Shown: positions 192 to 23,800, numbered from the stretch's first letter. The stretch: 64,000 nt of DNA from Haliotis cracherodii (GCF_022045235.1 NW_027266265.1:34720001-34784000), one strand, 5' to 3'. Made by a program: numbers and translations. Notes: generated by a model not told the origin, from the letters alone.

Positions 192-3100
192 TCAGATTGT
201 ATCAAATCTGAAACAGATGAAACAGTGTCAAACAAAAAAATACAGATTGTTTTTCCTTAGAAGGCACTTTGGACAAGTACTCAGTAGCCCACACTTCACT
301 TCAAAAATGAAGATGGACAAGCTTTAAAAAACTGTCACTGCTGACTGGTACAAACAATAAAGAAGTTTTTATCCTTAGTTACAAACAATAAAAAAGTTGT
401 CATCCATAGTAACAAACAATAAACACATTGTTTTCCAGTTACGAACAATAAAGAAGTCGTTATCCATAGTTGTAAACAATAAACACATTATCATCCCTAG
501 TTACAAACAATAAAGTCATTATCCATAGTTACAAACAATAAACAAGTTATCCATATAGTTACATGCAGAGTTGCGTCCCTTAGGCACACCAGGAAACTAT
601 GATTGTGGGTTCGAATACGGGTTCACCCTGATTATCTTTATGTTTCTTGGTTTGTCAGCACCTAACGCATACTCATGGTTTTACCCAAGAAGTAAATCAT
701 CTCTAATAACAAGCATACGTTACTGAGAACCAATTCTAACCAGGAATCTCTCTGGGACTCCCCCGACCTGCATTTGTTTTTATCACCTTGGGAATCTGTT
801 ATAATCCGAATGCACCCTACCTCTTCCCTTCCTTGTCCGCAAACTGTTTGATGGACTTCACAGAGGGTGCTCTTCCCAGAAGCTCCAGCACTCGGAGGAA
901 GGCAAAGGCCAGGAACATTGTCAGTCTGTGTTTAACATTCTCCGTGTGGACACGGATGTCGAACACACACCTCTCCCACCATGCCCTTAGGTGCCCGGTA
1001 ATGTTTAGACCTCCTGCCAGCTGCCGAGCTGTTCCTGATATGGCACTACAACAAAATCAAATTTAGGAGCCGTCTTAAAATCTGAGCGAAAATGACATAA
1101 ATAAGGAGGGCATGTTGACAATGTTCACTTCATGCACTAAAATGAGATTAATCAACTGGGAATAGTGATCACATGCAAAGCTGCATCAGTTGCTTTTTTA
1201 ATTAACTGCTTTATGGATCAGCAGCCATAAAAATCAAGAAAGTAGAAAAAAGTATAATACTCAATAATAATAATCAACATGATTAAGATGTTTTTTCTAA
1301 CTGCCAAGTCTGAAAACGCCATTTACTATAAAATATATCAGAAATTGTTTTCATGCCTGTCAAGACAAAAGATTGTCATGATCTTGACATTGAAATTTAA
1401 TCCAATTAATTAATTAAATTTTAAAAAAGAGTTGTTGTTTTTCAATACTGACTGACTAGCCATAAGTTATGAAAATGTCACAAACATTTAAAGTGGTTTT
1501 ATTCTTTTTTTTATAGGTGAGTGAGTTGGGTTTAATGCCGCTTTTACAGTATTCCAGTTATATCACGGCGTGTCAGCTTAATGTGGGAGGAAAGCCCGAA
1601 ATGATGCAGGTCTGAAATGTTTACCACTTTGGTGAAACCCATGAGCACAGGTATGGTGCTGACAAACCTGGAAACATAATTGGGGGGAACCGGGATTCAC
1701 AGGTTTCTGGCGTGCCCAAGGGACGCAACTCTGCACAGTGAATCGCGCCTCCAAAGACGACTGGGCCACCCGTGCCCCCCCTTTTGTTTAGGCATTTTTT
1801 ATGTTCAAAATAAGATCAAGTGATCTGGTTGAAGCACACAACATATATACGATACACATACTTTCCATATCGCTCCTACAACAGTGACTACAGTATACAG
1901 ATCCGTCTGAGTGGCCTACCTGCGAGCCATAATGCCATATCTGTCAACAGGGTGGCCATGTTCCCTAGTGATAGCCCTGATGGTGTTCAGGTTCCTGAAA
2001 ACAAACATTCCGAAATACAGCACTATCCCCATCTGTGCAGCAATCAGCATTGCAATGTTTCACAATAAATACCCAGAAAGGCCCCTGACAAAACTTTCAT
2101 TTTGTTTCATTTTGGAAATGTGGTGTAAAGGTCGATGTTCAGACCAGATAAACCAGTGACTGATACCATGAGCAACATCCCACATTATCAGGGTATGATT
2201 ACCACACAAAAGGTACACAAATATACTCACTGCCAAAAGAAACACGAACCATAGAAACATATTGTTTGTTTCTTCTTTGTTGCTTAACGCTGCACTCAGC
2301 AATATTACAGCTATATGACAGCGTCTGTAAATAATCGAGTCTGGACCAGACAATCCAGTGACTGATATCATGAGCATCAATGTCAACAATGTCATTTTGT
2401 CACACAGTTCTCATTCATCGTGATGTCTGTGTACACTGGCATGAGATAATCAAACAACAATGTCATTTTGTCACACAGTCCTCATTCATCGTCATGTCTG
2501 TGTACACTAGCATGAGATAATCAAACAACAATGTCATTTTGTCGCACACTTCTCATTCATCGTCATGTCTGTGTACACTAGCATGAGATAATCAAACAAC
2601 AATGTCATTTTGTCGCACACTTCTCATTCATCATCATGTCTGTGTACACTAGCATGAGATAATCACAAAACAATGTCAGATTGTCACACAGTTCTCATTC
2701 ATCGTCATGTCTGTGTACACTAGCATGAGATAATCACAAAACAATGTCAGATTGTCACACAGTTCTCATTCATCGTCATGTCTGTGTACACTGGCATGAG
2801 ATAATCAAACAACAATGTCATTTTGTCACACAGTTCTCATTCATCGTCATGTCTGTGTACACTGGCATGAGATAATCAAACAACAATGTCATTTTGTCAC
2901 ACAGTTCTCATTCATCGTCATATCTGTGTATACTGTCATGAGATAATCAAACAACAATGTCATTTTGTCACACAGTCCTCATTCATCATCATATCTGTGT
3001 ACCCTGGCATGAGATAATCAAACAACAATGTCATTTTGTCACACAGTTCTCATTCATCGTCATGTCAGGTGAGTAAAGATTTAGTTCTAACATAATTCTT

Positions 3101-6100
3101 GTGGTGAAAGCTAATTATGTGTTTTCACTGTGTGTCAGTATAAATTATTCATAGTATGTTAAAGAGTAATATCCTGACTGAATGTACACAAACCTAGTCC
3201 AAAACTCATCATCAGGGATACAAGAGCTGTCATCAGCAATTGTAACACAGTTTCAACTCGGACAAGTTTATCAAAACATCAGAGCAGACCAACTAGTGGT
3301 TGAAGGTGTGAGCATCACTATACAAATTCTGAGATTAAATGACACACAAGCAGAGACTAACTAGGTCTTCCATGACACTGGACAGTTACAGTACTTTCCA
3401 TACTATGTACCCATTGTATCCATCTGATCCCCACTGTGTCCATCTGTTCCCCATTGTATCCATCTGATCCCCATTGTATCCATCTGATCCCCATTGTATC
3501 CATCTGATCCCCAATGTGTCCATCTGATCCCCATTGTGTCCATCTGATCCCCAGTGTGTCCATCTGATCCCCATTGTGTCCATCAGATCCCTATTGTATC
3601 CATCTGATCCCCATTATGTCTGAATCATATTGTGGCCATTGGATCCCCATTGTGGCTCAATCATATTGGGTCATCTGATCTTCATTACGTCTGAATCACA
3701 GTGTGTCCATTTGATGCCCATTGTGTCTGAATGATCTGACGTCCATCTGATCTCCATTGTGTCCATCTGATCCCCATTGTGTCCATCTGATCTTCATTAT
3801 GTCTGAATCATATTGTGTCCATTTGATGCCCATTGTGTCTGAATGATATGAAGTCCATCTGATCTCCATTGTGTCCATCTGATCTCCATTGTGTCTATTG
3901 GATCCCGTAGAATTCATCTGCTCCCCATTGTGTCCACTGGATCGCTATCCGATCATCAGTGTATCCATCTGAACCCAATTGTGTCCATTGTATCCCATAT
4001 TGTGTTCACATAAAACCAATTGTGTCCATCTGATTCCCATTTCATCTTCCAACGATCATGGACTACTGCAATCTATATTTACTGGTGTGGTTCATTGCTG
4101 CAGACCCTATGACTGCGGAATATGTGTGTCTGTACTTCAAGGTTGCAGATGAGGCAAGAAAATACTGAAGCTTGAGAAGTGTAATACCCAGAAACAAACC
4201 AGAACCATGAATATCAAGCACCAACTCCAAATTCAAAATTGTTTCACCTTTTTCATGATACAACCAGCAAACGGCATTTCCTCATCACATCAACAGCTGT
4301 GCAAAGCATGAACAATTTCTCAACCAGTAAATAGTAACAAAACATCACATTTCCCCTGGGACGTGTGCACAAACATTCATGAAGAAATATTTACGTGGAT
4401 GTGTATATTTCAACTTTCAAAATTAAACCTTTGTGTATGTATTCAAAAACAACACATGTAAAATGCCCCCACAACCACAATGGCTTTAAAGACTGCTTAT
4501 TTAATCCTTAACACACAAACAATTGTTACAAACGATACAAAATCGGTGACATCATTCAGATAGATAATGCAAACCCTGCCCACTATTACCAACCAATCAG
4601 GAAACAGTAAGCTTCTAGTGGCATGGCCTACTATTTAAAGCTTTAGGGAAACAAACACACACAAAATATTGCTTGGTTAATTCACAGAGTCACTTACAAT
4701 TGTTTTATTCCTGCAAAAATAGACAAACCACTTACTGTTTGAGGATACCCACCTGATGAAGCAACAACACACTCTGCAGCATATATTCAACAAGCATTTG
4801 TACACCCACCTTATGACTAACAACAGACTTCGTGGCATACATTTCAGCACAGCCATAATTTTGTCAAAGTGTTGGCCTGCCATCACTCGCATATGTTCCA
4901 AGTCTTTTTCTGTCATTCGACTCGGCAAGTAAAGCGTCTTGCGTGCTATCGGGCGTTGTACCAGAATCTCACAGAAGACACGATGGTCTAAGGAAACAAA
5001 TGTCACCAAGAGATGAGAGAGACGGATACATCAACAGCAGCTTCCTCGAATGAAGAACAAGCCTTTCCACCTACATTTTCGGCCTACTTTTTTTGGCTTT
5101 TACTAACATCACTGACGGACTAAAACATCCTTTCAAAGTGGCCGTAATACAAGAGATAGCGGTGTAGGATTCATTATGCAAGTAATAACAGGTCAGCCTT
5201 TGTTTGCATGCAACCTTATTGATGTTTTAGTACAGGCATTAAACTGCATTAATCTCTCAAGTAGTTAAAGTGTTTAGTTCAAGTTGTTGGAAATAGATAT
5301 GGTTAATATGGTTTCTGTTAGCAAATGAGGGTGAGAGAAAGTACAAATCTCCGCAATATTCCCTCAGGACTAACACGTAACTCTAACATTAAAGAATCTA
5401 GCTAACACAGGACTATCCTTAAACCAAAATGCCAAAAGCAAATCTTGTCTAGTTTTCATGACATACACAAATGATCACAAATGCATTTATGTATGCAAGT
5501 ATTTACTATCTCAGCTGTGTCTACTACTGTCTCACAAAGATGTTTTCACCAGTCAACAGCGTTATGGCTAGCATGCAATAAGGGAACTTCCTTTGCAGAT
5601 TTTTGTTCATCTCAGGGCAATCATGAAATAATATTTTCCAGGTTCTGCAATTAAGGATTTCTCTTTGGAATTAAAACTCTTATGCCCTAACATATTAATA
5701 GTCAGCAGACCTGTGAAGTTCAGTAAGTCTTACATATTTCTGGATATGAACATAATGAACAAGATTAATGCCAGTGTCATTTCTTATTACAACTACCTAC
5801 CCTTAACGCATTTCTCAGACTAATTAGATATTGAATATTCATCATGATTACTAACCTAACTTATCACGCAAATGTCGTTCAATAACAGACAAGGAATGCC
5901 ACCATGGGCCTAACATTGCTTGTCCTTGAGGAGACTCTCAGACAAACTCAGCTCACGACCTTCACAATCATTAAAACAAATGTTCATTCCAAAGCAGGCA
6001 CTTGCAGCAATTAAAGAAGATTAAAGAATAGATCTATTCCAGTCCTTACACCATGCTGAGCAATCATGTTTGGGTTTAAAATAATAAAATATCTAATGCA

Positions 6101-9100
6101 ACATAGCTAACGGGCGCACAGCTAGCGTTTCCTTTCTCATATGTCCTGTAGAAAGATGGCATCCCTTTGGAGTTATAACACATACAGTGTATATTCTTTC
6201 TACTAGTCTTAACTCTGTAAATGGATCACAAACAAATAACCACAGATTAATACTTATGTCAAACGACAGGTAGGGATTTTAGTTCAGCAAATCTGTATGA
6301 TGGATTATTGTCTAGGTGGTTTTGCTTTCATTGGGGCAGTTTTACCAATCTCATTTATCTTAATAAGTCCCCCAGGTAAAACACAACATCATAACATGCG
6401 GACACTATACAACCAGGCCATGTGTGACATGATTACAGGACATAGACGACCGGTCGTAATAACCAGCAGATATAAAACCACCACAAACACTGAGCAAGAG
6501 GAGTGGATAAAGATATGCAAATGCGCAAAAGCTGAGCAATTTTTCAAATTTACAATCAAATTTTGGTAAGCGCTACATCTTTACACTAAAACAAGAAAAG
6601 CATTTTCAAGACTGCCTCCTGTAAGCAATGCCAACCTATGTCCCCCAAGGACTGCCATGAGATACATGCAGGATAGAAGATATCATTTCCAGAGTACATC
6701 AATAATAACTGGCATACCATCCTACTGAATCACATTTATGCATCCCAACACAGCCATAAGCATGCTTACAAAGCAGTTGATATCACAATATTCAGAGTCG
6801 AGAGAGTGCAAACGTGAAACTGCTCAGGAAAGAGTGAGAGAAATGACACAATCAAAAGAGAGAAATTGTTACGACAAATACGTAATAACACCAACCACTG
6901 AAGATATAGAGTGAAGGAAGCCACTCATCAACTAAAACGGAGATTTCCTACCTAAATATCAAAAGAAGACCCTTAGGCATATCTTTCATGACCTGCAAAA
7001 CACGATCATGAATGACTAAGAATTCCTTCTTGAGTTGATCTTGTAACTCTTTGGACATGTTTCTCCACTCTTGACGCGAGAAGGGTTTGGTGCGGAGCAA
7101 AGGCTTGTTCTTCACTCTAACTGGCCGCTGTACAAGCATTATGGCAAATATGTGGAAATCTGAGGAGTAGCAAGGCATTGCAATATTAATGACAGTATCA
7201 AATCTTAATAACAACCTTGTTCCGGTACATTTCTTTATCACCATAGTTACATAACTTCTACTATGTGAGTGAGTATGGTTTTACACCGCTTTTAGCCATA
7301 TTCCAGCAACATCACGGTGGGGGACACCAGAAATGGGCTTCACACATTCTACCCATGTTGGGAATCAAACCAGGGTCTTCGGTGTGGCAATTGAGTGCTT
7401 TAACCACTAGGCTACCCCACCACACTTCTACTAAGTAAAACTACAATTATTTTTTTTTGTCAAATGCCGCACCCCGCAATATCTCAGCCATATGATGACG
7501 GCCTGTAAATAACTGGACAGTCCAGTTGTTGCTTTGTTTTAGCATGCGATCATTACAGGGTGAGAACACTGTTCATTGACTCCAACTATTCAAATAAATT
7601 GGACATATACTTCAAGACAATGTGCAAAATTCTGAACTTAGAAAGGGATATTAAAAGAGATTATGGACCATGCTTCTTTACCAAGATGTATTTAGGGATG
7701 CACGTTATCAAGAGAGCAGGAAAAAAGCATTAGACAGACATATGAGCAGATATCACTTTGTATGGTTTGTTTGTTACAGCTCTGTCACCATGGGCAGATC
7801 AAATTTACACTGTTGAGGAATAGCCAGACTAATTGGAAACCTGTGGGTTATTTCAAGTTTGCACCCGGCCTTTAAAAGTACTCATGAAAAAACATCCATT
7901 TCTACTTAGACAAGACACACCAATAGTAACTGCTGTAATATACTGGTCAAAGTACTCCCTTCTCCTCACCTTCAACACCTAGATTCTGGGAGTATGTTTC
8001 CATGTCTTGTTCGTTCTTCATCACAATGGCTTTATACAGATGGCACAGGGACTCCCTGTGAGAGGGACTGAGGGAGTCGTATAGGCCATGATCTAATAGC
8101 ACCAACTCGGCACCGCCTTGTTTAGACCGCCGCACAAACACGTTTCCAGGGTGTGGGTCAGCATGGACAAAACCGGACAGGAAAATCTGGTCCGAGAAAC
8201 ATTTGACTAGCTTGGTATCTATCTGGAAAACAACATATATGGTCAGTATTGTTGGTAATAAAATGATTGAGTGAGTGAGTATAGATTTATGCCACCTGTT
8301 CATTTGCATGACAAGCGAACACTTTAATCACTTGACTACCCCACTGCCCCAGTCATAAAATGAACTGTGGATATATAATCATTGCCATATGTGTCAAGTC
8401 TTTGTTACTAAAATCAATTTTGTTATCTTGAAAAGCATTCATAATAGACCCCAATAGCCTGTTTGCCAACAACTGGTTCCAACCCTTCATATTGCAACTA
8501 ATAACGCCATTTGTGTGATCAAAAATACTTCACAATTTATGAATATGTTTTGTTCCTCCATCACTTTTGAAAATACATGGACTGTATGTTTTAGTAGTGA
8601 CACATGTCTAATTTCAGTACGCTAATGAAATGAGGTTGTATATAACTAGGAGTGTAACAATATATCAAACTATCAATTTATTGCAATTGTTTGCCCAACG
8701 TTTGTATTACTCAATAGGAATTTATAAAAGTTCATGATATCATTGATAGTCTGCATAAGAGTCGATAGTTTCAAAATTTGCAATTAAAACACTAATTATG
8801 CATCAGAATACTTCAGTTTAGAGTTATTTCCCATTGGTTTGCTAATCGACAGGGAGAGAAAAGGCCTAAAGTGTCAATATTACTTTGATTTCTATTACAT
8901 TGATAATCAACCACTAAAGTTGGTTTAATACTATCGCAAAACTATTGCAATAGTGTGGGGTTCTATTGCAATATAATTGCAATAGTAAAAAAAGCCCAAT
9001 AGTTACCCCTATTAATAACTCATTGAAGTACAAATGAACCCACTAACCTACCATCCTGAGCCATTAAAACAATGTGTAGAGAAGACTGCCACAAGGCTAG

Positions 9101-12100
9101 GGCACATGTTGCACACGATGTCAAGCGAGAAACCTTGCCATTTGTCTAACGTCAGCTGGGCACCCATTGATCTGAACAAAAGCAAGCTGGCCTCTTGTTG
9201 TCACCAGGAACCCATTCCACAAAGCGATAATAGCGTTAAGATGATCGTAACTCATATACCTTAACATAAACTTACAACAATCGTAGTGCTAAGATCACTT
9301 TGTGGAAAGGAGCCCAGGCCTTCGCTAGATTGGTTGGTTAATACAGCGACTACACATCATAGCCGACACATTTATTCACAGGTGAAGAGAAAACAACATA
9401 CCATTCAGTACTGACAATGTATGACTTTAAGCTGACATCGCTTCGATTCAGATTATAATAATATTAATATTTAGCAAGGAATAGCCAGGAATACAAAGAA
9501 GGAGATTCAAAAACTCTACCAAACCTAAGTCATTGGCGTGACAACATAACACATGATCCACTAGGCAACTCAACAATCCCAACATTTCATCACAAAGCTA
9601 TGTGACACAAAGCTTTGTGTCAGGAACAAAATAGAGAATGTGAGTTGAGTTTAACGCCAATTTGAACAGTATTAAAGTTATATCAAGCAAAGAAATCCTG
9701 AAGGGACATAGGTCCTGGAAGTTAGTACTCTGATGAAACCCACCAGCTGTGTGCCGATCTGAATCTATGACCAGCACAGCCAATTTGGGTAAGTTAGTCC
9801 AATGAACAATTCAGGGAATGTCAGTATGGTCAAATGTTCTACTCCCATACAATACCTGTGTGCACGAACATCTGACAACACTGAAGGTTGCGTCAGGTGA
9901 ATTTTTTAATTAGTGTCAAGAATTTTAAATTATCAGTACAACTGAACAAATTATTCAGACAAGCATATCTGTTATCCGTATCTCGAAAATGAACATAATC
10001 AAGAAAATCCAAATGTGAAAATATGCTATTATTTCATTGTTGTAGATATTTTATATCCTGTCATTTTCTATGTCACTCACTGACTGTTTCAAGTCCGTCT
10101 ATGGACGTGTCATCAGACCTTGATGCAAACAAGTACTGTAACGGAGAACAAGAAGAATTGTTTAAACAAACTGTTTATTTACATCTTTCAGTGACAGACC
10201 CAAGTTCTTGATGCCAGCAATGTTGCTGATCTTGCAGCCATCAATGTATTCCGCTGTGAGCACCCGCTAAAAGTAACATAACATATGCATGTTATAGTCA
10301 ACATAGGCAAAGAGCACTTGACATAGAGATACTGTCAATAAAAGTAAGAACCGAGAAACAAACACTTTAAAAAATACTTTCATTTTGACAATGTCTTATT
10401 ATTTCAACTATGTCATTAGTACAATAAGCATATTAGGTTTTCAACTATGAAACTTCCTTCCATGATTTTGAAACCCAGGGCTACAGAAGCTCGTCTTTAT
10501 TAACTGATATAAAAATGAGTGAGTTGAGTTTAACACCGCTTTGTAACATTATTCCAATTATATCATGGCGTGTCAGCTTAATGTGGGAGGAAAGCCCGAA
10601 GTGATGCAGGTCTCAGACGTTTTACCACTTCAGTGAAACCCACGAGCATGGGTATGGTGCTGACAAACCTTGAAACATAATTTGGGCGAACCAGAATTCA
10701 AACCCACAATCATAGTTCTCTTTCAGATTAAATCCTCCTTGGGGCACTTATTGCATTTTCCTGGTTCAAGAAAATCTACATGACATAGTTGTAACCATTT
10801 TCCTTAATAAAATGTTACCACACAAAAAACTTCGTTTTTGTATGATATACGACCACCCTTACGGTGCCTCACCCTCTACGGCGCGTCACGCCAAGGGAAG
10901 CAACTCTCACCCAAATCACTTTCCTTTATGTCATTCGACTGACAAGACGTGTGACCATTCTGAGAAAAGTTTCAAAGTACGAAATCGTGACCTGAGACAG
11001 CATGACTGACCAAACTGTATGTATGGTACATTTATTACCTTGCAAAGGCGTAATACCTCGCATTGTAAAGTTATAAGGTTGTAATTCTCATAGAAGAAAC
11101 GCCACGTGTACGGTGCATAAGAATTCAAATGTCCGTAATGGCGTCCATTGTGCGGTTTCACTGTCTGACACATGTAACCCCAAGGCCAACAAAATGGCTT
11201 GGGGTTTTGTTATATCATACAGTTTTCAACTGCACGTTTTTTCCTTTATAAAACCCAAGGTGATGTACTAGATTATAACTATACTTACCTTTTTTAAGGG
11301 TTTTTTACACCTTAGAGCGTAATACGCCCACTTGGTGTTTTTTTTTTTTTTTTTTAAAAAAACAAAACAAATTTTACTACGGACAATGGCTATTAGTATC
11401 GCGCTACAGTCGCATTATACATTACGCCTTTGCTTCTGTTTTCACAATTGTTAAAAGCACGTATCTTCCGATCTTTATCGCACTGATACACTTTTCCCGC
11501 CCAACCCAACAAGATTTACGGTCTTTTTACAGACCTTCAAACTTTGTACGGGATGCGGGATTAACGTCCCACCCCAAGACCAACATGCATTTTGCCTAAA
11601 GTGCTTGGTGGAGAACGGACACGATGATCAATCATGCCCCACATGCAAGGCTTTTACGCCCAAGACGATGAAAAGGCGGCATGCCGATCTCCTACACTAT
11701 AAAAGCCTACTCGAGGCGGGGGTGGACATTCACTCGAAAAAGGCCATTCCCCCCCCGTCTAAAAAGGGTAAAAATAAACCTAAGGCTAATAAGCCTTCCG
11801 CTACGGTCTCCTCCGCTCCCTCTTCGAGGGCCGGGGGTGAAGGCTCTAGGGTTCCCGAGGTCCCCTTAACTGCACCCTCTTCTGCACCGTCTTTAGCAGA
11901 TATATCTGCTTTGTTTAAGTCGCAGATGGCGTCGATGATGGAGGAGGTCAAGTCTCAGCTCCGAGAGGAGATGCGGGCGGGGCCTTCCTCGTCGTCGGCG
12001 CCGGGCGCGGTTTCGAGGTCTTGTGGAATGCCCGGCGTCGGCCGAGGCAGGCCACTCGACCTCGGGGACGACCCGAGACCGGGCTTCGGCTCCGGCTCGA

Positions 12101-15100
12101 GGTCGCTCCCCAGTGAAGGGGTGGCGAGCGCTGGCTCGTTCACTACCTCCGCACCTTTATTCCTAGCGGGGTCAGACGCCTTCTCCGAGGCCGAGGCTCC
12201 AGCTAGCGGATTTATGGCCCAGAGCCAGGTGGGTTCTCTTGAACCCCCGGCACCTCGGGACCGGGACTCGGCTTCGGGCCGGGGGCAGCCCGGGGATGCG
12301 AAGACCCAGGCCTTCGGGTGTCCTTTTCCTGCCTCGTCCGCTCACTCTCTTGAGGACGAGTCGACTACGGTCGGCTCGGAATCGAGAGAGGAGGAGTGGA
12401 TGGAGGAGGGAGGGGATGACTCGGAGGCTTCGGGAATTTTTTCCATCGCATCCTCGTTGAGGCACGTACGGGACAAGATTGTCCAGGTACTGCCTCAGGT
12501 GGCTGCGCCTATGCCCGAGTCGGATCCAACTGAGTTCCGCCTTCCGGGGGACGCCTTCGCTCCTAGCAAGGCGCCCCAGGTGCGGCTCCGTATCTTGTCC
12601 TCCCTGACACACGAGGTCATCGACCCTCTGCTCTCGGGTGCCCGCAGGAAGTTCGACCTGCCCGAACTTAATAAGCGGTACCCGTTGGCAGAGGACGGTG
12701 ATTTTGAGGTGCCAGTGGTCGACGAGTGCGTTTGGACTTCTGTCACCCTGGGGGGGTCTTCGACCCCCGCCTTGGCTAAGGCCAAGCAGGGCCGGCGATT
12801 GCCCCCCTTTCCCATGTGCGGCGCGGAGTTGAAGGCGGCTTACGTTTGCTTTGAGGAGCAATACCGTAATGCAGGCCAACAGCTTCGCATAGCCGTACAC
12901 TCTGCTTATCTGTCGGCTGTACAGAGAGAGCTAGTGGGAGAGGGGCCGGCCGACTCTTCGGAGTTGGCGGTGCAACTGACGGAGGTCCACAGTCATCTCG
13001 CGCGGGACGCTATTCGTAGCTGTGCTTCGCAGATGATGTGCGCAGTTATGGGCATGCGCAGGCTGTGGATGTCAGTATCCAAGTACTCGACGTCCACACG
13101 CCAGGATCTCCTAGCTTTGCCTTATAAGATGGGTTCTACCCTCTTCCCTGGGGCTCAGCAGGTAGTCCGAGAGGCCGCTCAAATGTATGCCTCCATCAAG
13201 GACTCTAAGGCCTTGTTGGAAATACCTAGCGTTAAACCGCGTAAGCGGGCCTCTCCGCTTGAATCCTCCCACGCTGACGCGCCGGCTCAGAAGTCCGCAC
13301 CTACTTGGAAGCAGCCGCTTCCTACAGGTAAGGGCGCCGGGAGGAGCAAGCGAGGCAGGGGCCGGGGCAAGGCAGCTGGTCGAGGCCAGCAGCCTTTTCG
13401 CGGGGCCGGGAACCCATCGGGTTCCCATTAGCGCCCGAAGCGCCCCGGTTATCGAACTGCTGACAGCCGGGGTCCACTGCCTCAAACCGGATGTCCCCGT
13501 AGGCGGCCGACTGGCTCTATTCCTGAGGGAATGGGAGACAGTCACCTCAAATCCCTGGACCCTGTCCACTCTAAGGGATGGCCACTTGCCTCGGTGGAAA
13601 CATCATCCGCCCCCCTTCTCCGGGATAAAGCACACTCCGGTGCCTGCTACCCGAGAGAAGGCGGAATTCCTCCGTGCCGAGGTCAACGCACTTCTTATGA
13701 AGGCGGCGATCGAATCGGTTCCCGTGGGACAGGAAAGCGAGGGCTTCTACTCGACTTATTTCCTAGTCACCAAAAAAGACGGAGGGTTCAGACCTATTCT
13801 CAATCTGAGAAGGTTGAACAATCATATAGAGGTACCGTCCTTCCGGATGGAGACACTGTGCTCAGTGATCTCCGCGGTCGAGACAGGAGAATGGCTAACG
13901 TCAATAGACCTAAAAGACGCCTATCTCCACGTACCCATACACCCCGAGTTCAAGAAATACCTCAGGTTTTCTTTCGACGGGAGGTGTTATCAGTTCAGGG
14001 TTCTACCATTCGGGATCGCCACGGCCCCGAGGGTGTTCACCAAGCTGATGTTGATTCCGGCCCAAATAGCCAGGTCGAAAGGTCGGCTCTGCCACCCATA
14101 CCTCGACGACTGGTTACTAAGAGCTCTATCGCAATCCCTGAGTCAGATAGCTACACAACAAGTGATAGATATTCTGATCACTCTAGGGTGGATAGTCAAT
14201 CTCAAGAAGTCAGACCTGAGACCTACTCAGAATCTAGTCTTCCTAGGGGCGAATTTCAACACGGTGAGCGGTCTTGTATCACTGTCACAAGATCGCATTA
14301 CCAAGGTCAGAAGCGTTACTACCCAGTTCCTTCTGTCCGCAAGTCACACTGCTCGTACATGGCTCCAGTTACTGGGCAACATGACGGCGACAGTGGATGT
14401 GGTTTGGCGGGCGCGCCTGAGAATGAGACCCATTCAACAAGCGCTCCGTCGACTTTGGGTGAACTCGGAAAATCTCGAGACTGTTCTCGAGACCCCGCAG
14501 TGGCTCATTACACACCTTCAGTGGTGGACCGAGGTCGGGAATCTGTCCCGGGGGCTCCCCCTCGACACTCCCGTTCCGTCTCTCACAGTTCAAACAGACG
14601 CGTCACTCTCCGGCTGGGGAGGCGTTCTGAACGATCACACTGCCTCGGGACTATGGTCCCAGCAGGAGATCAAATTGCATATCAATGTGCTAGAACTGAG
14701 AGCGGTCAGGTTGGTGTTCCAACGCTTCCTGGATCTGCTTCGTGGCCAAGTGGTTCGTCTAGAGATGGACAACCAAACGGCGATGACTTACATCCGGAAG
14801 CAGGGGGGAACGGTGTCTCCGTCGCTTCTCCAAGAGACGTGGCAGTTCCTCCTATGGTGCGACTCACACGATATCAGGGTGCTACCTGTTTATCTCCCGG
14901 GGGTAGACAACGTCCGTGCGGACGCTCTGTCTCGCCGGATCCTCGCTCCTCACGAGTGGAGGCTCGACCCGGGGATATTCGGGATTATCTCCCAATTATA
15001 CGGGTCGTTCCAGGTGGATCTGTTTGCGTCTGGGGTGAACCACCAGACACCAACGTTCTGCTCCCGAGTCCCCGACCCGAGGTCGGTGGCACCGGACGCC

Positions 15101-17793
15101 TTCCAGCTAGATTGGACGGACAGAATTCTGTGGGCATTCCCCCCAGTACCTCTGATCCACAAGGTCCTATCTCAGCTCACCACTCAACCTGCGCGACTAC
15201 TTGTGCTCCTGGCACCTCTTTGGTCGGCGCAGAGTTGGTTTCCAGTAATACTCAGGTTTCTGGCTCAGCCTCCTGTTCTATTACCTTTACGACCGGACCT
15301 ACTATCCCAGAACGGGGCCCTCCACCCGAAATCCCAGGATTCAGTGGGTGGCTTGGCCACTGTCAGGAATCGCCTCCAGAAGAGCGGTATTCCTGCACGA
15401 GTTGCAGACACAATACTGGCTTCGCGGAGGGATTCGACAAACGTTCAGTACGAGGATAGATGGGCCTGCTATGCGCGCTGGTGTGTCGATAGAGGGATTG
15501 CAGATCCCTTTTCTGCAGATCTCGTAGCCGTGCTTGAGTTCCTCCAGTCGCGACTAGATGACGGCCTGGCCGCATCAACAGTCCGGGGGTACTCTACAGC
15601 TATCGCAGCTTTTCACGTCCCTGTCGACGGGGCACTTCTGGGTGCGCACCCATTAGTGCAGCGCTTTTTAGCAGGTGTGGACAGGATCCGACCGCCGGTA
15701 CGGCGGATCAGTCCCCCTTGGGACTTGTCAATCATTCTTGATTGGCTGTCCGGTCCTTCCTTTCGGGATCTGTCGTCTCTCTCTCTTCAGCTGTTGAGCT
15801 GGAAGACGGCGTTCCTTGTGGCGATAACGTCCGGCAGACGGGTAGGCGACATTCATGCAATGTCAGCCGATCCCGAGTTAACTGTCTTCCACCGGGACAG
15901 GGTCAGTATTCGGCTGCCGGATTCTTACCGTCCTAAGGTCGCACACGCCTTCCACGTGACGGCTCCTATTGAGCTACCTGCTCTTTCACAGCCTTCCTCG
16001 TCGGGGACCACTGCAAGACATGCTCATGTCTTGGATGTCCGTAGGACACTCAAGGCCTATATCAGCAGAACTAAGGGTATCCGTAAGGATAATCAACTAT
16101 TTTGCTGTTATGGCGGTAGGAAGGCTGGCTCACCTGCGAGCAAACAAACTATCTCCAGGTGGATAGTCTCTACTATCTGTACTTCGTACACCCTTCAAGG
16201 CAGGGACCCCCCTACCAAGTTGAAGGCTCATTCGGTTAGAGCAGTGGCTACATCACAAGCGTACGCCGCGGCTCTGCCCATTGAGGAGATCTGCTCCGCG
16301 GCTATTTGGAGCCAGCCGAGCACGTTCATCAAACATTACCAACTCGACAAACACTCAAGCGAGCGTGCTCGGTTTGGTCAGTCAGTTCTCCGAACTGGGC
16401 AAAGTTCTAATCTCTAGCCGATTGAGCCTTCGAGATTTTAGATCGCCCGGACCGGTTATACAACTGCTCAGTAACGGTCCGGATTATATCTTCTACGGTC
16501 GATAAATTATCCGTCCTTACTACTCGATAATACTCGTATTGCACAGCACTCCTCAGATCCTCGGAGACCCTCTGGCCTAGCTCAGCGCGGTTATAGTCTC
16601 TCGTGATCAACGCCCCTATATCACTCGTTCAAACAAGTGGGGGGGAGGGTGTTTTGAGTTCTCAAAATATGATCAGCCAAGAATAAAGGCTAATATCATA
16701 GCATATGGTCGACCACGCCCTGTCTCCAGCCCCCGCCTCTCGACGGTGGTGCCTCACGATAAGGTTGGTTCCATTTTATTGAACTCTCAGTTTATTCTCT
16801 GAATATTCAAAATACGATGTATTTATTTCGCTTGTTGCTGACGGATGCCACTTCCTAGATTATCTTTAGGAGTCTGTCTTGATGCAATAAGTGCCCCAAG
16901 GAGGATTTAATCTGAAAGAGAATTTTACAAACCTGTAGAGGTTGTGAATTCTCTGATGAAATCCTCCTTGGGGCACGGCCACCCACCTCCCCACATTCCG
17001 TCAGCATTAGACATATGGAAAGTGATTTGGGTGAGAGTTGCTTCCCTTGGCGTGACGCGCCGTAGAGGGTGAGGCACCGTAAGGGTGGTCGTATATCATA
17101 CAAAAACGAAGTTTTTTGTGTGGTAACATTTTATTAAGGAAAATGGTTACAACTATGTCATGTAGATTTTCTTGAACCAGGAAAATGCAATAAGTGCCCC
17201 AAGGAGGATTTCATCAGAGAATTCACAACCTCTACAGGTTTGTAAAAGTTTCTGGCATGCCCAAGGGATGCAACTCTGCACAGCAAATCATGGCGCCTTA
17301 GACGACTGGGCCACCCATGCCCACCACTAACCCAGAATCCTAATGGGCCAGCTGAAGGTTCACCATGTTAAATAACACAACAGCAGAGCATTCTACTATT
17401 CCTTTCACAGTTGTGGACATGCTTCACTAAACACACCAACACAGATCACCTACCTTACTTGTTTTATCCCAGTGCACCTTGGGGACGTAGACATACTTAA
17501 GATGTTGCAAGTCCTTCTGGCACCTCTCACCATTACCACCCTCATTCACAAAGTCCAGCTCCTGGGCTAATGTCCCCTTCAGATCCTGGAAACATGCATA
17601 AAGGTACAATGATATAGCCATGGTGGCAAGTGGTCCTGTGTACAGCACACTGGTCACAAATCTGACAAAGTTAAGTGACATTTTCAAGAGTCGGTGAATG
17701 AGTGACAGTGTTCAGCAGCCTGACTCCTGTGAGTTTCTAGAGATCCAGGCCTGGCAAGAAACTTTGTTCAGAACATGACCCTGTTCCTGTTAT

Positions 17794-17840
<47 letters not shown>

Positions 17841-20800
17841 CGATCATCTGAAAATACTTCTCATACTGTACACAGGGAGTTGAAACATAATATCTTTCTT
17901 ATATTAATCAGTGTATTAAACATACTGTAATACCTTGCGAAGACCATGAAAAGAAATATATACAAGTATTTGTCACAGAGTGACGAAATATCCCCCGCCT
18001 GTACACCATAGTACCAAATATGAAGACAATCCAGCGATTAGTTCTTGAGATATTGTGGCAACACCGTTTTCCAACTCCAAAAACAGATTTGCCTCCTGTG
18101 ACCTTGAAAATGGGGTCAAGGTCAACAAATCTGACAGGTGTATGCGGTGTCTGTATATACACTATAGTTCCAAATATGAAGACAATCCAGCGATTAGTTC
18201 TTGAGATATCGCGGCAACACCGTTTTCTAACTCCAAAAGCAGATTTGCCTGCTGTGACCTTGAAAATGGGATCAAGGTGACCAAAACCGACTGGTGTCTG
18301 CGGAGTCTGTATATACACCATAGTTCCAAATATGAAGACAATCCAGTGTTTAGTTCTTGAGATATCGCGGCAACACCGTTTTCCAACTCTAAAAGCAGAT
18401 TTGTCTGCTGTGACCTTGAAAATGGGATCAAGGTCACCAAAACCGACTGGTGTCTGCGGAGTCTGTATATACACCATAGTTCCAAATATGAAGACATTCC
18501 AGAGATTAGTTCTTGAGATATTGCGGCAACACCGTTTTCCTACTCCAAAAGCAGATATGCCTGCTGTGACCTTGAAAATGGGGTCAAGGTCACCAAAACC
18601 GACTGGTGTCTGCGGAGTCTGTATATACACCATAGTTCCAAATATGAAGACAATCCAGTGTTTAGTTCTTGAGATATCGCGGCAACAAACAGGTGGGACG
18701 TACGGACGGACGTACGGACGGACGGACAGACGGACGTACGGACGGTCGTGAATACTATATCCCCCGCTTCGCGCTTTCGCGCGGCGGGGGATAATAATAA
18801 AGCATTCTCTCTGAATATTTCTTAATATAATTTGTAAGAAATTACTGTTGATATATAAACAATTTTACTCTTACAAAAATAACCAATATTCTAAAATGCT
18901 TTTATCATGATCTTAAGCTGAATCACTTCTGGGCCCGTTCCACAAAGCGATCTTAGCACTAAGATGATCGTAAGTCCCATACTTTAACATAGGTTTAAAA
19001 TCATCGTAGCGCTAAGATCGCTTTGAGGAACGGGGCCCTGATCATTTATTATGTTACTAGGGTTACCTAGATATTGCTATCTTGTTTGTATGTTTTACAC
19101 TACTCTGTGATATTCCGGCTTCATGATGGCAGCCTGTAAATAACTGAGTCCGGGCCAGACAAACCAGTTATTGATATTGAGCACCGACCAGTTATTGATA
19201 TTGAGCACCGACCCAGGCCATCGGGGTGAGGACATGCAATAATCCAAGTTCCCTAGCTTGATCACCCGATCTGTTAAATCGCCTCTTACAACCATCATAG
19301 GTTGTTGGGGAACAATTCTAACCAGGAGTCCCATGACGGAGATATTGAAACCAACATAATATGCTCTCCACATGTCTGTGCTAGCTAGTTACCTGAATGA
19401 CCCAGGCGAAGCCAAACTTTGGGTGAATCCAGCCAATCAGGTGCAACAGGATCTCACATGTTCGAATATCCCCACTGAAGCGGTCACGGAGGTCTATATA
19501 CTGCACCTGGAAAATCACAATGGTATTGCAATGAATACATCATTCTGACTACAATGTGAAGTTCGTCTTGGGTCTGTTTTAAATATTAAGTCTAATAATG
19601 AGCATTAAAGAATAAATGCAATGTGTTTATACTTACCTGACACAACACAATACTTTAGATCCCTACCTTTACAGACAGTATTGGAAAAGACAGACAGTTG
19701 AACCCTGTTGAATAACCACAGGCCTAAGAATTCCAAATGGGAGCACTCTCCACTTAAAGTGCCGGTCCCGTGAGAAGAGCCGGAGGAGCTGCATGGATGG
19801 TCGAGGCGGGATGTCGGCAACTAACTGGTTATGTGGCAGGAGAATCCTCATCGGCATCAAGGACCATAGGTCCATCTATGGGAATATGTCTTGTCCTGGC
19901 GAAGTGCAGGGCTGATGATCATTAACCTCAGTGGCATGTCCGCTGGGATCAGGGGTCGAACTGGAGGCACTTCAACAAAGTCAGGAATGAAGTCATCATC
20001 AAAGAAACGGCGATCTCGGTGGCAAAAGTGATCGAAGCAAGGCGGCAGACTGGGGCCTCGTGCCTGGTGGTGAAGTCATACCCTGGTGCTAGTCTCTGGA
20101 GGAGCGAGGCGCATCAGAGGTCCCGAGATACCAGTGTTGGAGGAGGTGTGGCAATGGTCAGGCCACTGTCTACATGCTGGCGACCATAGGAAACTGCTGG
20201 TGATGGCTCTAGAGGGAGACGTCAGGGCGGCCTTCAGGCTATCTCGATCGGCAACAGGATCCAGTAGACAGGCAGTAGGAATTTCTCAGAAGGGGCACAG
20301 GAGAGGTGATCAGGAGACTCAGGGTGCTGACAACCTTTCCCAGTCAGAGAGGTGAGTTCTGGCAACCCACAGCTTACAGAACTTGTGGGAGGTGTCATGG
20401 CAGTCTTCAGGGGCTTTCGATCGGGAACAGGATCCAGCAGGCCGGTGGGATGACATCTCAGAAGAGGCACATGGTGTCACCCGAGTAGCAATCCTCTGAG
20501 GCAATGGCACCAATGTGGAGGTATTCATTGAGGTTGTCGTGGGTAGTAAAGGTAATGTCTCTGACAGAGGAGAATACAAAATGGCAACCTTGGCGCGAAA
20601 AATATGCTTAGGTACATGGTTGACGTTTTCCGTGAAACTAACAGCAAAAAGCAGAAATATACCACCTAGAAGCAGAATATATGTCTGAAGAAATATATAC
20701 TCAAGGAAAACCATTGAAACCCCTGTCAGGAAACGACCTAAAAGTATCAGAGGAAATCTTAGTTCACTGTAAGGTAGTCTGTCGTGTAGGCAGACAGAGC

Positions 20801-23800
20801 AGAATAATAGGGAGTACGGGCCGAGGTGGGTAACTCTGGAGTAACAGGGTAAGGGCTATAGTGTTTCAACTGTCTCTCTGTTCCAGTACGGTCTGTTTGT
20901 AAAGGTAGAGAAGCTAAAGAACTGTGCAGCATCAGGTACAGTAAAACTTAATATTTAATATAGTATATTAACATTACTTAGAAATGACTACTTGACAATT
21001 ATATTTGGTACCAAGTCTGATAATGCAAATGTAATGCACACAGTGCTGAGAAAACAAACAATATTACTTCAATGTTAATCATGTAAATAACAATTCTAAA
21101 ACAGTTAATATTTTTTAATCTTATTCCACACCCTCTATACACTCCCTAAAACACGACTGTGCCATGCTGACAGCCTGAATAAACAAACATTGTCTGCCTG
21201 CACCATGTGCACAAGCCATGCCTAGTAAAGTCCGTGATTTGGGAAACACAAATTCCGAAACAAAATTATGAGCTAATTTACTTTTTGAGTCAAGCCTATA
21301 TTTAGAACCGTTATATTACATCTAAAACATTATTTAATTTTTTTTAAATCTCTAAATGCTTACTGGTACTCATTTTGGGAAAAACCCAACAGAGTGATGA
21401 ATAGATAGGTAAAAAATATTGGTTACCAATGAAAAATGTAATAACCCAATTAAAATAGAAACCTTCGAGTAAAAACTCAATTGCTCAAAAAGTTATCTGG
21501 AGCTCTGGATGAACTGCACATGCTCTCCTTTTCGTAGTAAATGCACCACAACACATGCACTACACCGCGTTCTGTGACTTTATCCACTAGTCAGAAGCCG
21601 GAGTTCATTAAAATTATGTTCAGTCTCAAAAGCATGGTAAGCTCAGGTAAATAATAGCAGGGGTAGAAACTAACAGTTTTAGTCCAGTAGTCCTTATAAG
21701 TATAACACATAACAAAACGCATATAAATGGCAAATTTCTACTACCGGTAGTCCTTATAATACCTTAACTATTGGGCACTTTTGCAAGGACTACAAGACTA
21801 GTGCTAATTTCCAATGCTGAATAGCCCACATAACATTACTAAATTCTACTAAAAATTATGCTAAGAGCCAAGTTCAGGGTAGCAGTCGCAAGGGTTTTGG
21901 CACAGACAGAACACATGAAGCTACAACTGCCTTCCAACCTTCCAACCCTGTTGCTGACTGCAGAGATAATACAGATCCAAAGTTCAGCCCAGAGTTCAGT
22001 CATCCTGAACCTTGCATGATCTCAACCCTTGCCTAGCACACACAGTGAACATGCCCCTATACACTGAATACATGGTAACTACTCCATCGTGTGGTTTACC
22101 TTCACAGCTACCCTTTCTCCCTCATGGGTGACAGCACGATGGACTTGAGCGAGACTGGCAGCAGCGATTGGTTCCTCCTCAAACTCAGAGAACATTTCCT
22201 TTGGAGTCTTTCCAAAATCTTCTAAAAATAGTTGTTGGACCTGTAGTTGGGATACAGTGAGTTCATAAACATAGTAAAACACAACAGAGGTCAAACCAAA
22301 ATACAAAAATGATCGGAATAATTCTTACACATGAATGAGTTTAGTTTAACACCACTTTGAACAGTATCTCAGTTATATCACGTCACGCAGCTTCATGTAG
22401 CATGTGTAGCAGTGAGTGAGTGAGTGAGTCGGCTTGATGTGGGAGGAAAGCCGGAAGTGATGCAGGTCTCTGACGCTTAACATTTTGGTGAAAACCACAA
22501 GCACGAGTATGGTGCTGACAAACCTAGAAACATAATCGGGACAAACCTGGACTCGAACCCATGATTAATGTTTCTGGCTTGCCCAAGGTACGTAACTCTG
22601 CACTTATACTTATAGGAGGAGAGCCTGAAGGGATGCAGATGCTTACCACATCAGTGAAGTGAAACCAACAAGAATGAGTATGGTGGTGACAAACCTAGAA
22701 ATGTGGGTAAACCTGATTTGAACCCAGAATCTTAGATTTCCGGTCAGCGTAAGAGATGCAATACTGCAGGGCATGATCTAGTGAGTGAGTGATATCTTAA
22801 AGTCACATCGGCAGTATTTCAGCTACATTGTGACTATGAAAGGTTGTACATAGTAAATAAATACAATAACTACACTTATCACCAATTTGATGGCTTAATT
22901 AGAATGTTCACACTGAGATAGAATTTTGATCATCTACCCACATCAACGATATGTCGTCATTCTCATTCCTCTTCCAGACTATCACCTACCTCATGTGGTC
23001 CACGTGCCAGCGCCTTATCTTGCAGAGCAACCAACACATCAACATATTCTCGAGGTAGGATGTGGTTCAGAGATACAAGACCCTGTCCAAGTTTTATATA
23101 CAACCCTCCATTCTGCAAGCAGCCAAGCAACATCCTCTCAGCTGCCCGCCGATGACATCCTTTGATCGTTCGATCATATTCCTCTCCATCCTCATCAAGG
23201 TTCCATAGAGACCATTTGTAGTCCAGAGAGATTAAAGTACCAATCACTAGAGACCTAAAATCACACATGATCATACTTATAAATATTTACTGCTAAAACA
23301 TTTGTCATGTTCACCGGATCTGACCTGATACATGTTACAATATGAGATTGAGTCTTGCTAAGCTTTGTTCCGGGTTAGAATTGGTCAACTTTTGCTTGTC
23401 GTACTAAAGTACTAAGTACTAAGTCAGCTAAACAGATTGGGTGCACAGGCCATTATAAAGCTGGAACATTGATGAGTGTTTAACAACATACAAACATATA
23501 ATGTACACTCACAAGTCTGAAAAATTATCCGTAAGGTTCACTCGGAATTTTCAGACACGAGCCCTTTATGTGAAAATTCCAAATATTCCAGAGGTACACC
23601 CACACTTGCCCATATAGCACAATGTTAAAATGCCCCATTGTATTTGAAATGTGGGCCTTTTTTCAAATTTAGGGGCTAGAAGCACAAGGCCCCATCCTAG
23701 AATTATCCCTGGGGTCACCCCAGTATGTTCAACAATGGAGCCCTAGTGCAGACTCAGAGGTTAAATAGGTCCCCTTTCCATCTCATATAAGTCAGATGTT

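Follow-up and report, generated by a model that had tools for sequence, protein, structure and literature searches.

Why would a gene keep two strongly diverged versions of one exon, set one behind the other, if its reading frame survives only when one of them is used? The question is raised by the gene for ADCK5, a mitochondrial UbiB kinase-like protein, in a stretch of 64,000 nucleotides (nt) of DNA from the abalone Haliotis cracherodii (GCF_022045235.1 NW_027266265.1:34720001-34784000; hereafter ‘the window’, with positions counted from its first letter). The pair had been pointed out in a sequence-only reading of the window, made by a model without database searches, and the computational analysis that followed it up is reported here. 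We hold with good confidence that coding exon 8 of ADCK5 is present in two homologous copies arranged in tandem (A, upstream, and B), that the frame is kept when only one of them is used, and that the pair is likely older than the divergence of molluscs, annelids, and arthropods and likely gives rise to two working proteins, in which the swapped C-lobe helices are predicted to alter the handling of lipids or quinones. This answer draws on the anatomy of the pair, its frame logic, A-only and B-only gene models in 14 species, the tandem order A then B in abalone and in three metagenome contigs, purifying selection, two exon clades, and an intact predicted UbiB fold.

Anatomy and frame of the exon pair

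Exon 8A (7159-6952, on the minus strand like the whole gene) is the derived copy; it is 208 nt long, is preceded by CAG and followed by GTAGGA, and encodes 70 residues if junction codons are counted. Exon 8B (4987-4810, minus strand), the ancestral-like copy, is 178 nt long, is bounded by TAG and GTGGGT, and encodes 60 residues by the same count. They lie between two constitutive exons on that strand: exon 7 (8222-7970), which holds the catalytic HADPHPGN and DHG motifs and ends in phase 1, and exon 9 (1994-1920), which starts in phase 2 and completes a conserved Arg codon. Both copies have lengths of 1 mod 3, are open in a common frame, and run from phase 1 to phase 2; spliced translation is open through exon 7, A, and exon 9, and equally through exon 7, B, and exon 9. 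Inclusion of both brings up a TGA stop five codons into B (4971-4969, minus strand), composed of the wobble T of a Cys codon and the GA of a Glu codon. In the messenger RNAs (mRNAs) with A+B and with double skipping, stops arise at distances of 459 and 292 nt, respectively, upstream of the last junction; by the usual 50-nt rule, stops so placed would make them targets of nonsense-mediated decay.

The peptides of A and B are homologous above chance (global BLOSUM62 score 66; shuffles with a mean of -3 and a maximum of 33.5, n=5000). No third copy of the exon was found within the 64-kilobase window. A paralogue or retrocopy was rejected, given the single genome match obtained for each of A, B, and the intronic arm of the RNA duplex described below, in searches that score best candidates only. 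The A-B intron, 1964 nt long in abalone and of the GT-AG kind, is without a high-copy repeat (contig depth of about 8 over 4970-6845), and a short interspersed element (SINE) with a depth of >100,000 sits upstream of A, at about 7265-7400. The sequence-only reading had given exactly these coordinates for the two exons and had described them as homologous, open, canonically spliced from phase 1 to phase 2, strongly diverged at 70 versus 60 residues, frame-breaking when both or neither are included, and free of a SINE between them. The alignment score against shuffles, the AG and GT ends, the residue counts, the spliced translations with their early stops, and the depth profile bear it out on all these points.

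Both isoforms in database models

A database search with the ADCK5 region returned 118 proteins. Models of both the A and the B form occur in 14 species: 12 molluscs (Haliotis rufescens, Patella, Aplysia, Biomphalaria, Pomacea, Littorina, Mizuhopecten, Ylistrum, two Crassostrea, Saccostrea, and Mya), the annelid Owenia, and the nemertean Tubulanus. We compared 16 A/B pairs in which the segment could be located, 15 of them same-species pairs from these 14 species. The flanks outside the segment are identical over all aligned length in 12/14 species and differ at 2-3 residues in the other two; within pairs, the A and B segments share only 15-22 of about 60 residues. In RefSeq, isoform X1 of H. 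rufescens is A (636 amino acids), X2 is B (626), and X3 is the A+B product (537; P0010). H. cracherodii is annotated with the A form alone, and the H. rubra model uses B. The brachiopod Lingula has A-type models, all eight cephalopod-cluster proteins covering the segment are B, and so is a tapeworm model (P0289). The first exon (9a of the sequence-only reading) is represented by A models in these 14 species, and the pair is not confined to molluscs: it is found also in an annelid, a nemertean, and likely arthropods.

Tandem loci and selection

A scan of metagenomes yielded 29 loci with exon B, 16 of which stop short of the upstream exon; the loci are most like lophotrochozoan proteins. Three contigs (L026, L027, and L028) carry the upstream exon, A (232 nt), and then B (178 nt) in tandem, with AG/GT ends, phase 1 to 2, A-B introns of 147-325 nt that are all GT-AG, and the early stop of the A+B product in the same place as in abalone. 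Between L026 and L027, the proportions of nonsynonymous (pN) and synonymous (pS) differences are 0.044 and 0.46 in A and 0 and 0.31 in B, and pN well below pS among the three contigs indicates that both exon copies are under purifying selection. Selection for the A+B early stop itself was considered and rejected: the TGT codon that creates it is present in 4/4 A-bearing loci but also in 17/23 loci of a lineage without detected A. One metagenome locus is intronless and has B. In the lineage whose contigs span the interval without A (L004, L006, L007, L011, and L018-L022), an additional intron interrupts the upstream exon behind the HADPHPGN motif, as in L028.

Age and origin

Are the A-type segments of distant animals one and the same exon? 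Among arthropods, a gene model of the cricket Gryllus (P0168) has an A-type segment followed by a B-type one; a Megalurothrips model and a Caligus transcript are A-type; and Hetaerina X2, two beetles, a tick, and Drosophila are B-type (Drosophila models have B only, isoforms A and B of D. melanogaster being the same protein). A hidden Markov model built from lophotrochozoan A alone gives 5/5 arthropod A segments 32-52 bits, against 9-23 on B; two of these five group with Caligus in the backbone tree, which was built without the segment and follows animal groups. All A segments form one clade (100/99) under LG+G4 and under a mixture model, in trees of 63 of the 83 segments (near-duplicates and distant outgroups dropped) and of 47 rows, respectively. 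A single clade of lophotrochozoan A and B is rejected (p=0.002). Change has been faster in A than in B (mean identity 0.41 vs 0.59 in 9 species), and by sequence B is the ancestral-like form, resembling the single segment of other animals, some of them represented by proteins that we take to be vertebrate ADCK5.

We regard it as probable that the pair arose once, in early protostomes, and that losses of A followed; with an alignment of 70 columns and a long A branch, we go no further than that. From general animal phylogeny, the age of such a pair is over 500 million years. A separate duplication of the exon in lophotrochozoans and in arthropods, with the likeness of the A segments due to convergence and long-branch attraction, seems unlikely to us. 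It would fit the short alignment and long branch, the difference between arthropod A segments of about 80 residues and mollusc ones of 70, and the fact that convergent tandem-exon events are described as common (PMC9741552); an arthropod clade of A+B was also not rejected in a first approximately unbiased (AU) test (p=0.061). With a mixture model and the 78-residue A exons of L026 and L028, which bridge both lengths, that clade was rejected (AU p=0.017). The order A then B is moreover common to cricket, abalone, and L026-L028, and the A-types share a His-x-Arg motif and the loss of a Glu.

Two further segments were seen in the course of this comparison. The ADCK5-like proteins P0132/P0276 of the starfish Acanthaster have a 71-residue segment that is weakly nearer to A (score 38) than to B (12.5); in the tree it falls outside the A clade, on a long branch. 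P0122 has a 97-residue segment and joins the A clade.

Evidence of exon use

Contigs from 4 of 22 sequencing runs were compared (X1, X3, X8, and X10). None of the runs is on record as RNA, which is our guess as to their nature; they come from different organisms at low depth, and depth cannot rank the isoforms. Exon-sized contigs with breaks at splice sites occur in 4/4 runs, and such contigs differ from the window at 0-1 letters, compared with about 2.6% in intron. Contigs of exon 7 end exactly at 7970 in three runs and in the fourth continue for 28 letters unlike the intron. In X3, B has its own contig (4809-4989, depth 27.5), as does A (6951-7159 plus 29 extra letters, depth 17.3), with exon 7 ending at 7970 at a depth of 43.1 and intron contigs at about 8.5. 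In X1, A has its own contig at a depth of 14.4 (exon 7: 15.4), and one contig crosses from the intron into B with no break at the B acceptor. The converse arrangement is found in X10, where B has its own contig with 26 extra letters at its 3' end and another contig crosses the A donor unbroken; X8 has an A contig with 27 extra letters and a raised depth over B. We read these boundaries, indirectly, as mainly A in X1, mainly B in X10, and a mixture in X3 and X8.

How the choice may be made

The frame itself would be the main policeman of exclusion, and nonsense-mediated decay would clear away the mRNAs that contain A+B or skip both exons; we think this the likely route. Steric or U12/U2 exclusion was considered and discarded: the A-B introns measure 1964 nt (abalone) and 147-325 nt (L026-L028), and every one of them is GT-AG.

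The sequence-only reading had suggested a search of the introns for docking and selector pairing. A strong predicted duplex was indeed found, although one of its arms lies inside exon A and no competing partner turned up at B. The exonic arm (7131-7094, minus strand; inverted repeat I1) contains GAAGAA, and the intronic arm (5071-5034, minus strand) lies 47-84 nt upstream of the B acceptor. Together they form the longest inverted repeat within 4100-7970, with 16 perfect pairs, or 19 with one G-U, plus an 8-base-pair helix (predicted). Sixteen perfect pairs were reached by 1/300 dinucleotide shuffles, and the predicted duplex energy lies between -51 and -53 kcal/mol, where 1364 overlapping intron windows have a median of -22 (standard deviation 4.8). 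In this scheme, the duplex would pair exon A with the intron before B, hiding GAAGAA in A and looping out the A donor, and B would be favoured; fast splicing before the second arm is made would favour A. In human ATE1, pairing of the intron between the exons with the region of the first exon is reported to repress exon 7a (PMC7797038); the abalone duplex would likewise favour B. As in ATE1 7a/7b and Dscam, an intron element between duplicated exons pairs with sequence at the first exon; unlike in those genes as described, no competing partner was found at B, one arm is wholly exonic, and the pairing is absent from L026-L028.

These differences limit the proposal. The intronic arm with B reaches -34 kcal/mol through scattered short helices, in a window that is not B’s best, and in L026-L028 the best windows are no better than shuffles (37, 9, and 13 of 60). 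Because the duplex lacks a competing partner at B and is absent from those contigs, it may add to frame policing a bias specific to the lineage; that it biases exon choice in abalone at all is a tentative proposal, which we hold with a little less than even confidence.

A different structure was observed in two of the contigs. In L026 (1254-1267 with 1508-1521) and L027, a stem of 9-11 base pairs with a shared core flanks B. Among the 23 loci tested, stems round B were matched by shuffles in 2/300 cases for L026 and 11/300 for L027, and in 61/300 for L028 and 183/300 for the window. A conserved stem round B was rejected, being found in neither L028 nor the window.

Two predicted folds and a predicted pocket

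Both isoforms have the ADCK5 hallmarks, namely the KxGQ, catalytic-loop, and DFG-like (DHG) motifs, and both fold confidently in predicted models (mean predicted local distance difference test score, pLDDT, 80 and 83; segment of A, 70-88). Compared with COQ8A (7udp), the B model has a Z score of 29.4 and a root-mean-square deviation of 3.6 over 362 aligned residues, and the A model 25.6 and 3.4 over 343. The exon starts about 40 residues past the DHG motif, ends at an invariant Arg, and in the models encodes a short helix, a loop, and a long helix before a Met-Pro turn; R522, N523, and N525 are invariant in 54 B-type proteins. To this A adds an insert of 10-20 aromatic-rich residues and a predicted short helix (491-496). 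The classes also differ on the helices themselves: B keeps the ancestral Glu and Phe-Asp, and A loses the Glu and gains His and Arg on the last helix. The Glu is present in 31/31 B and 0/25 A segments; a Phe in 31/31 B is a His in 19/25 A, with an Arg two places after it in 21/25.

Could A be mainly a regulatory poison exon or a decaying relic, with B alone making a working protein? Such a role would agree with the annotation of early-stop A+B products (P0010 and P0114), the faster evolution of A (0.41 vs 0.59, 9 species), and its loss in some lineages. It is very improbable, however, for an exon whose frame is open and whose length is near-fixed across four phyla, whose pN is far below pS, whose segment is predicted to fold (pLDDT 70-88), and which is the sole annotated form in H. 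cracherodii, the form of the Caligus transcript, and the seeming main form in run X1. The view of the sequence-only reading, of an old and maintained either-or pair giving two C-lobe variants, is supported by the species pairs, the genomic tandem loci, the contig boundaries in four runs, and the folded models.

What would the swap change? In COQ8, ATP hydrolysis is reported to move helices 14 and 15, opening a C-lobe pocket for quinone head groups that is lined by R431, H443, V396, and Y355, with R444 relaying the change (10.64898/2026.02.03.703536, a 2026 preprint). The numbering of 9TVK in our alignment agrees with that of the preprint (D321, D340, and Y355). COQ8B K378 aligns three residues before the exon, and the distance from the catalytic Asp to the conserved Arg is 123 residues in COQ8 according to the preprint and 122 in isoform B; therefore V396, R431, H443, and R444 would fall in the exon-equivalent stretch, in a mapping that uses residue counts and the ends of alignments and is not residue-level. 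With its end at offset 89, the structural alignment places R522 on COQ8A R611. The exon would correspond to COQ8 helix 14 plus the initial half of helix 15, and its swap would change cargo selectivity or gating and spare the ATP site; we hold this with slightly less than even confidence. Yeast Cqd2, a putative orthologue of ADCK1/5, is reported to move coenzyme Q (CoQ) out of the inner membrane (10.1101/2020.12.09.418202).

The swap might instead alter a surface for membrane or protein partners, the longer, basic, aromatic loop of A retargeting ADCK5 and the cargo pocket being unaffected. Most of the A-B difference is indeed the insert of 10-20 residues, A is predicted to gain the helix 491-496, and in lophotrochozoans the A segments carry more net charge (+5.0 vs +2.0) and more aromatic residues (9.3 vs 3.9). 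The charge gap is absent in arthropods (+1.6 vs +1.2), however, and the most constant class differences, the Glu and the Phe/His positions counted above, lie on core helices; we consider this a real possibility and a somewhat improbable one.

ADCK5 resembles COQ8A, COQ8B, and Cqd2, as far as these have been described, in its UbiB fold (Z 25-29), its catalytic motifs, and a C-lobe Arg equally far from the catalytic Asp. It differs from them in sequence (18-20% identity) and in the exon swap, no swap of these helices being reported for the other proteins in the sources cited here.

Points that weigh on the other side

Several observations count against a pair of ancient, mutually exclusive, functional exons with a pocket-changing role. 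The isoforms in RefSeq are automated predictions, not peptides, and they include A+B products in H. rufescens (P0010) and Owenia (P0114), both ending five codons into B. Because these products are annotated, exclusion is leaky and not strict, which corrects the mutual exclusion proposed in the sequence-only reading. Evidence of exon use in the runs is indirect, resting on contig boundaries, with junction letters masked by the SINE in joint tables. In one other metagenome lineage, 9/9 contigs spanning the interval are without A (one intron measuring only 262 nt), and because this lineage lost it, A is dispensable for some animals. As to age, the branch of the A clade is long (1.06-1.41) and the alignment has only 70 columns, the first AU test (p=0.061) did not reject a separate arthropod origin, and the arthropod tandem is known from one cricket gene model, not from genomic DNA. 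The missing partner at B and the absence of the duplex from L026-L028, noted above, belong here too. As to the pocket, its residue Y355 maps to a constitutive exon, COQ8 is only 18-20% identical to ADCK5, and the sequence alignment to COQ8 stops just before the exon, so that the pocket is placed by count.

A possible link to rhodoquinone

Molluscs and annelids are reported to switch between ubiquinone and rhodoquinone by means of either-or coq-2 exons (6a/6e; Tan et al. 2020, PMC7434440), and the rhodoquinone makers named in that work are nematodes, flatworms, molluscs, and annelids only. The abalone COQ2 gene likewise has tandem homologous exons, of 131 and 134 nt (G000:C56:66966555-66966425, L037, and 66962459-66962326, L038), which carry Leu/Ser versus Phe/Ala at positions tied there to rhodoquinone versus ubiquinone synthesis (PMC7434440). 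The ADCK5 pair resembles coq-2 6a/6e, as far as that pair is described, in that either-or exons remodel a quinone-pathway protein near its ligand site (predicted in ADCK5) in molluscs and annelids, one exon being ancestral-like and the other derived. It differs in that the two coq-2 exons have the same length and occur only in rhodoquinone makers, whereas the A-type of ADCK5 occurs also in arthropods.

It is conceivable, and in our estimation quite improbable, that the ADCK5 pair is itself a rhodoquinone/ubiquinone switch alongside coq-2, with A serving rhodoquinone or its precursors at low oxygen and B serving ubiquinone. Exon A is found widely in molluscs and also in an annelid, both groups being rhodoquinone makers (PMC7434440), the same genome carries the COQ2 exon pair with its diagnostic residues, the exon maps by count to the head-group pocket, the yeast relative Cqd2 moves CoQ (10.1101/2020.12.09.418202), and the eight cephalopod-cluster proteins covering the segment are all B. 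On the other hand, A-types occur in Gryllus, Megalurothrips, and copepods, and no arthropods are among the makers named in PMC7434440; in a literature search for rhodoquinone in arthropods, no paper with that word was among the matches listed. The tapeworm model P0289 is B-type, and ADCK goes unmentioned in a screen for rhodoquinone enzymes (main text and 12/18 supplement files). A fuller version of the idea would make ADCK5 a quinone/lipid chaperone whose cargo pocket has been splice-switchable since early protostomes, with A carrying a different quinone (rhodoquinone or amino precursors) than B, co-regulated with the coq-2 switch through the exon-intron RNA duplex, and unnoticed as flies and vertebrates kept only B; we regard it as a long shot.

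The ADCK5 gene in the window

The coding span of ADCK5 covers 192..25177 on the minus strand and has 11 coding exons, of which the A/B pair is the eighth: 25177-24780, 23254-22990, 22240-22100, 19506-19393, 17585-17454, 10266-10183, 8222-7970, A or B, 1994-1920, 1045-821, and 207-192. Spliced translation of the full A isoform equals RefSeq XP_071092066.1 (P0009, Haliotis cracherodii) with 0 mismatches, and the full B isoform differs from H. rufescens X2 at 3 residues. The Pfam ABC1 domain is found at residues 210-454 (E 1.8e-78), and in a quick backbone tree with the segment removed the abalone protein groups with proteins named ADCK5.

At 24780-24774 (minus strand), coding exon 1 is followed by a donor that reads TTAAGT, not GTAAGT, at the only boundary that yields the RefSeq protein; this may be a non-canonical donor of a rare type, an allele, or an error of the assembly. 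An antisense retroelement (about 10700-17250) lies in the intron that separates coding exons 5 and 6; it has long overlapping open reading frames on the plus strand (11455-13431, 13166-16417, and 13432-15459), inverted terminal repeats of about 200 nt, a match to a reverse transcriptase domain (E 6e-19), and weaker ones to Dam and LAP2alpha, and we take it to be DIRS-like. A possible 13-nt microexon lies 100 nt downstream of B (about 4710-4698, minus strand); its acceptor is pyrimidine-rich and its donor reads GTAAGT, its inclusion would shift the frame, and no contig break occurs there in the runs compared. The same intron has two tandem repeat arrays, at about 2400-3060 and 3400-3960, with units of about 61 and 20 nt by eye.

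Known systems and significance

Tandem duplicated exon substitutions form a known kind of event, and those described include the protostome-wide one in Ca-alpha1T/cca-1 (Martinez-Gomez et al. 2022, PMC9741552). The ADCK5 pair is like that event, as described, in having homologous tandem exons, isoforms that differ in one region, great age, and retention in arthropods and molluscs. It is unlike it in affecting a mitochondrial UbiB kinase-like protein, in copies that differ by 10-20 residues in length at about 31% identity, and in being missing from Drosophila models. The string ‘ADCK’ is absent from the main text and one short supplement file of PMC9741552, and we found no paper on the ADCK5 exon pair in a search outside which lie subscription journals and large supplementary tables that could list it. 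The statement of the sequence-only reading that it knew of no such switch described for ADCK5 holds for the literature found, with the qualification that both isoforms already stand in automated RefSeq models. The event is apparently undescribed; its kind, ancient tandem-exon substitution, is known.

According to a 2025 review, the molecular mechanisms of UbiB proteins are largely undefined and ADCK isoforms other than ADCK3 poorly understood (PMC12193262). A natural either-or swap in helices predicted to gate a cargo pocket provides a ready-made pair of proteins for finding the cargo of ADCK5, and the abalone duplex suits a simple minigene test of exon choice. The pair is also one more of the rare tandem-exon events with a likely protostome-wide reach, here in a mitochondrial gene, and it suggests a connection, open to testing, with the quinone chemistry that molluscs and annelids use at low oxygen.

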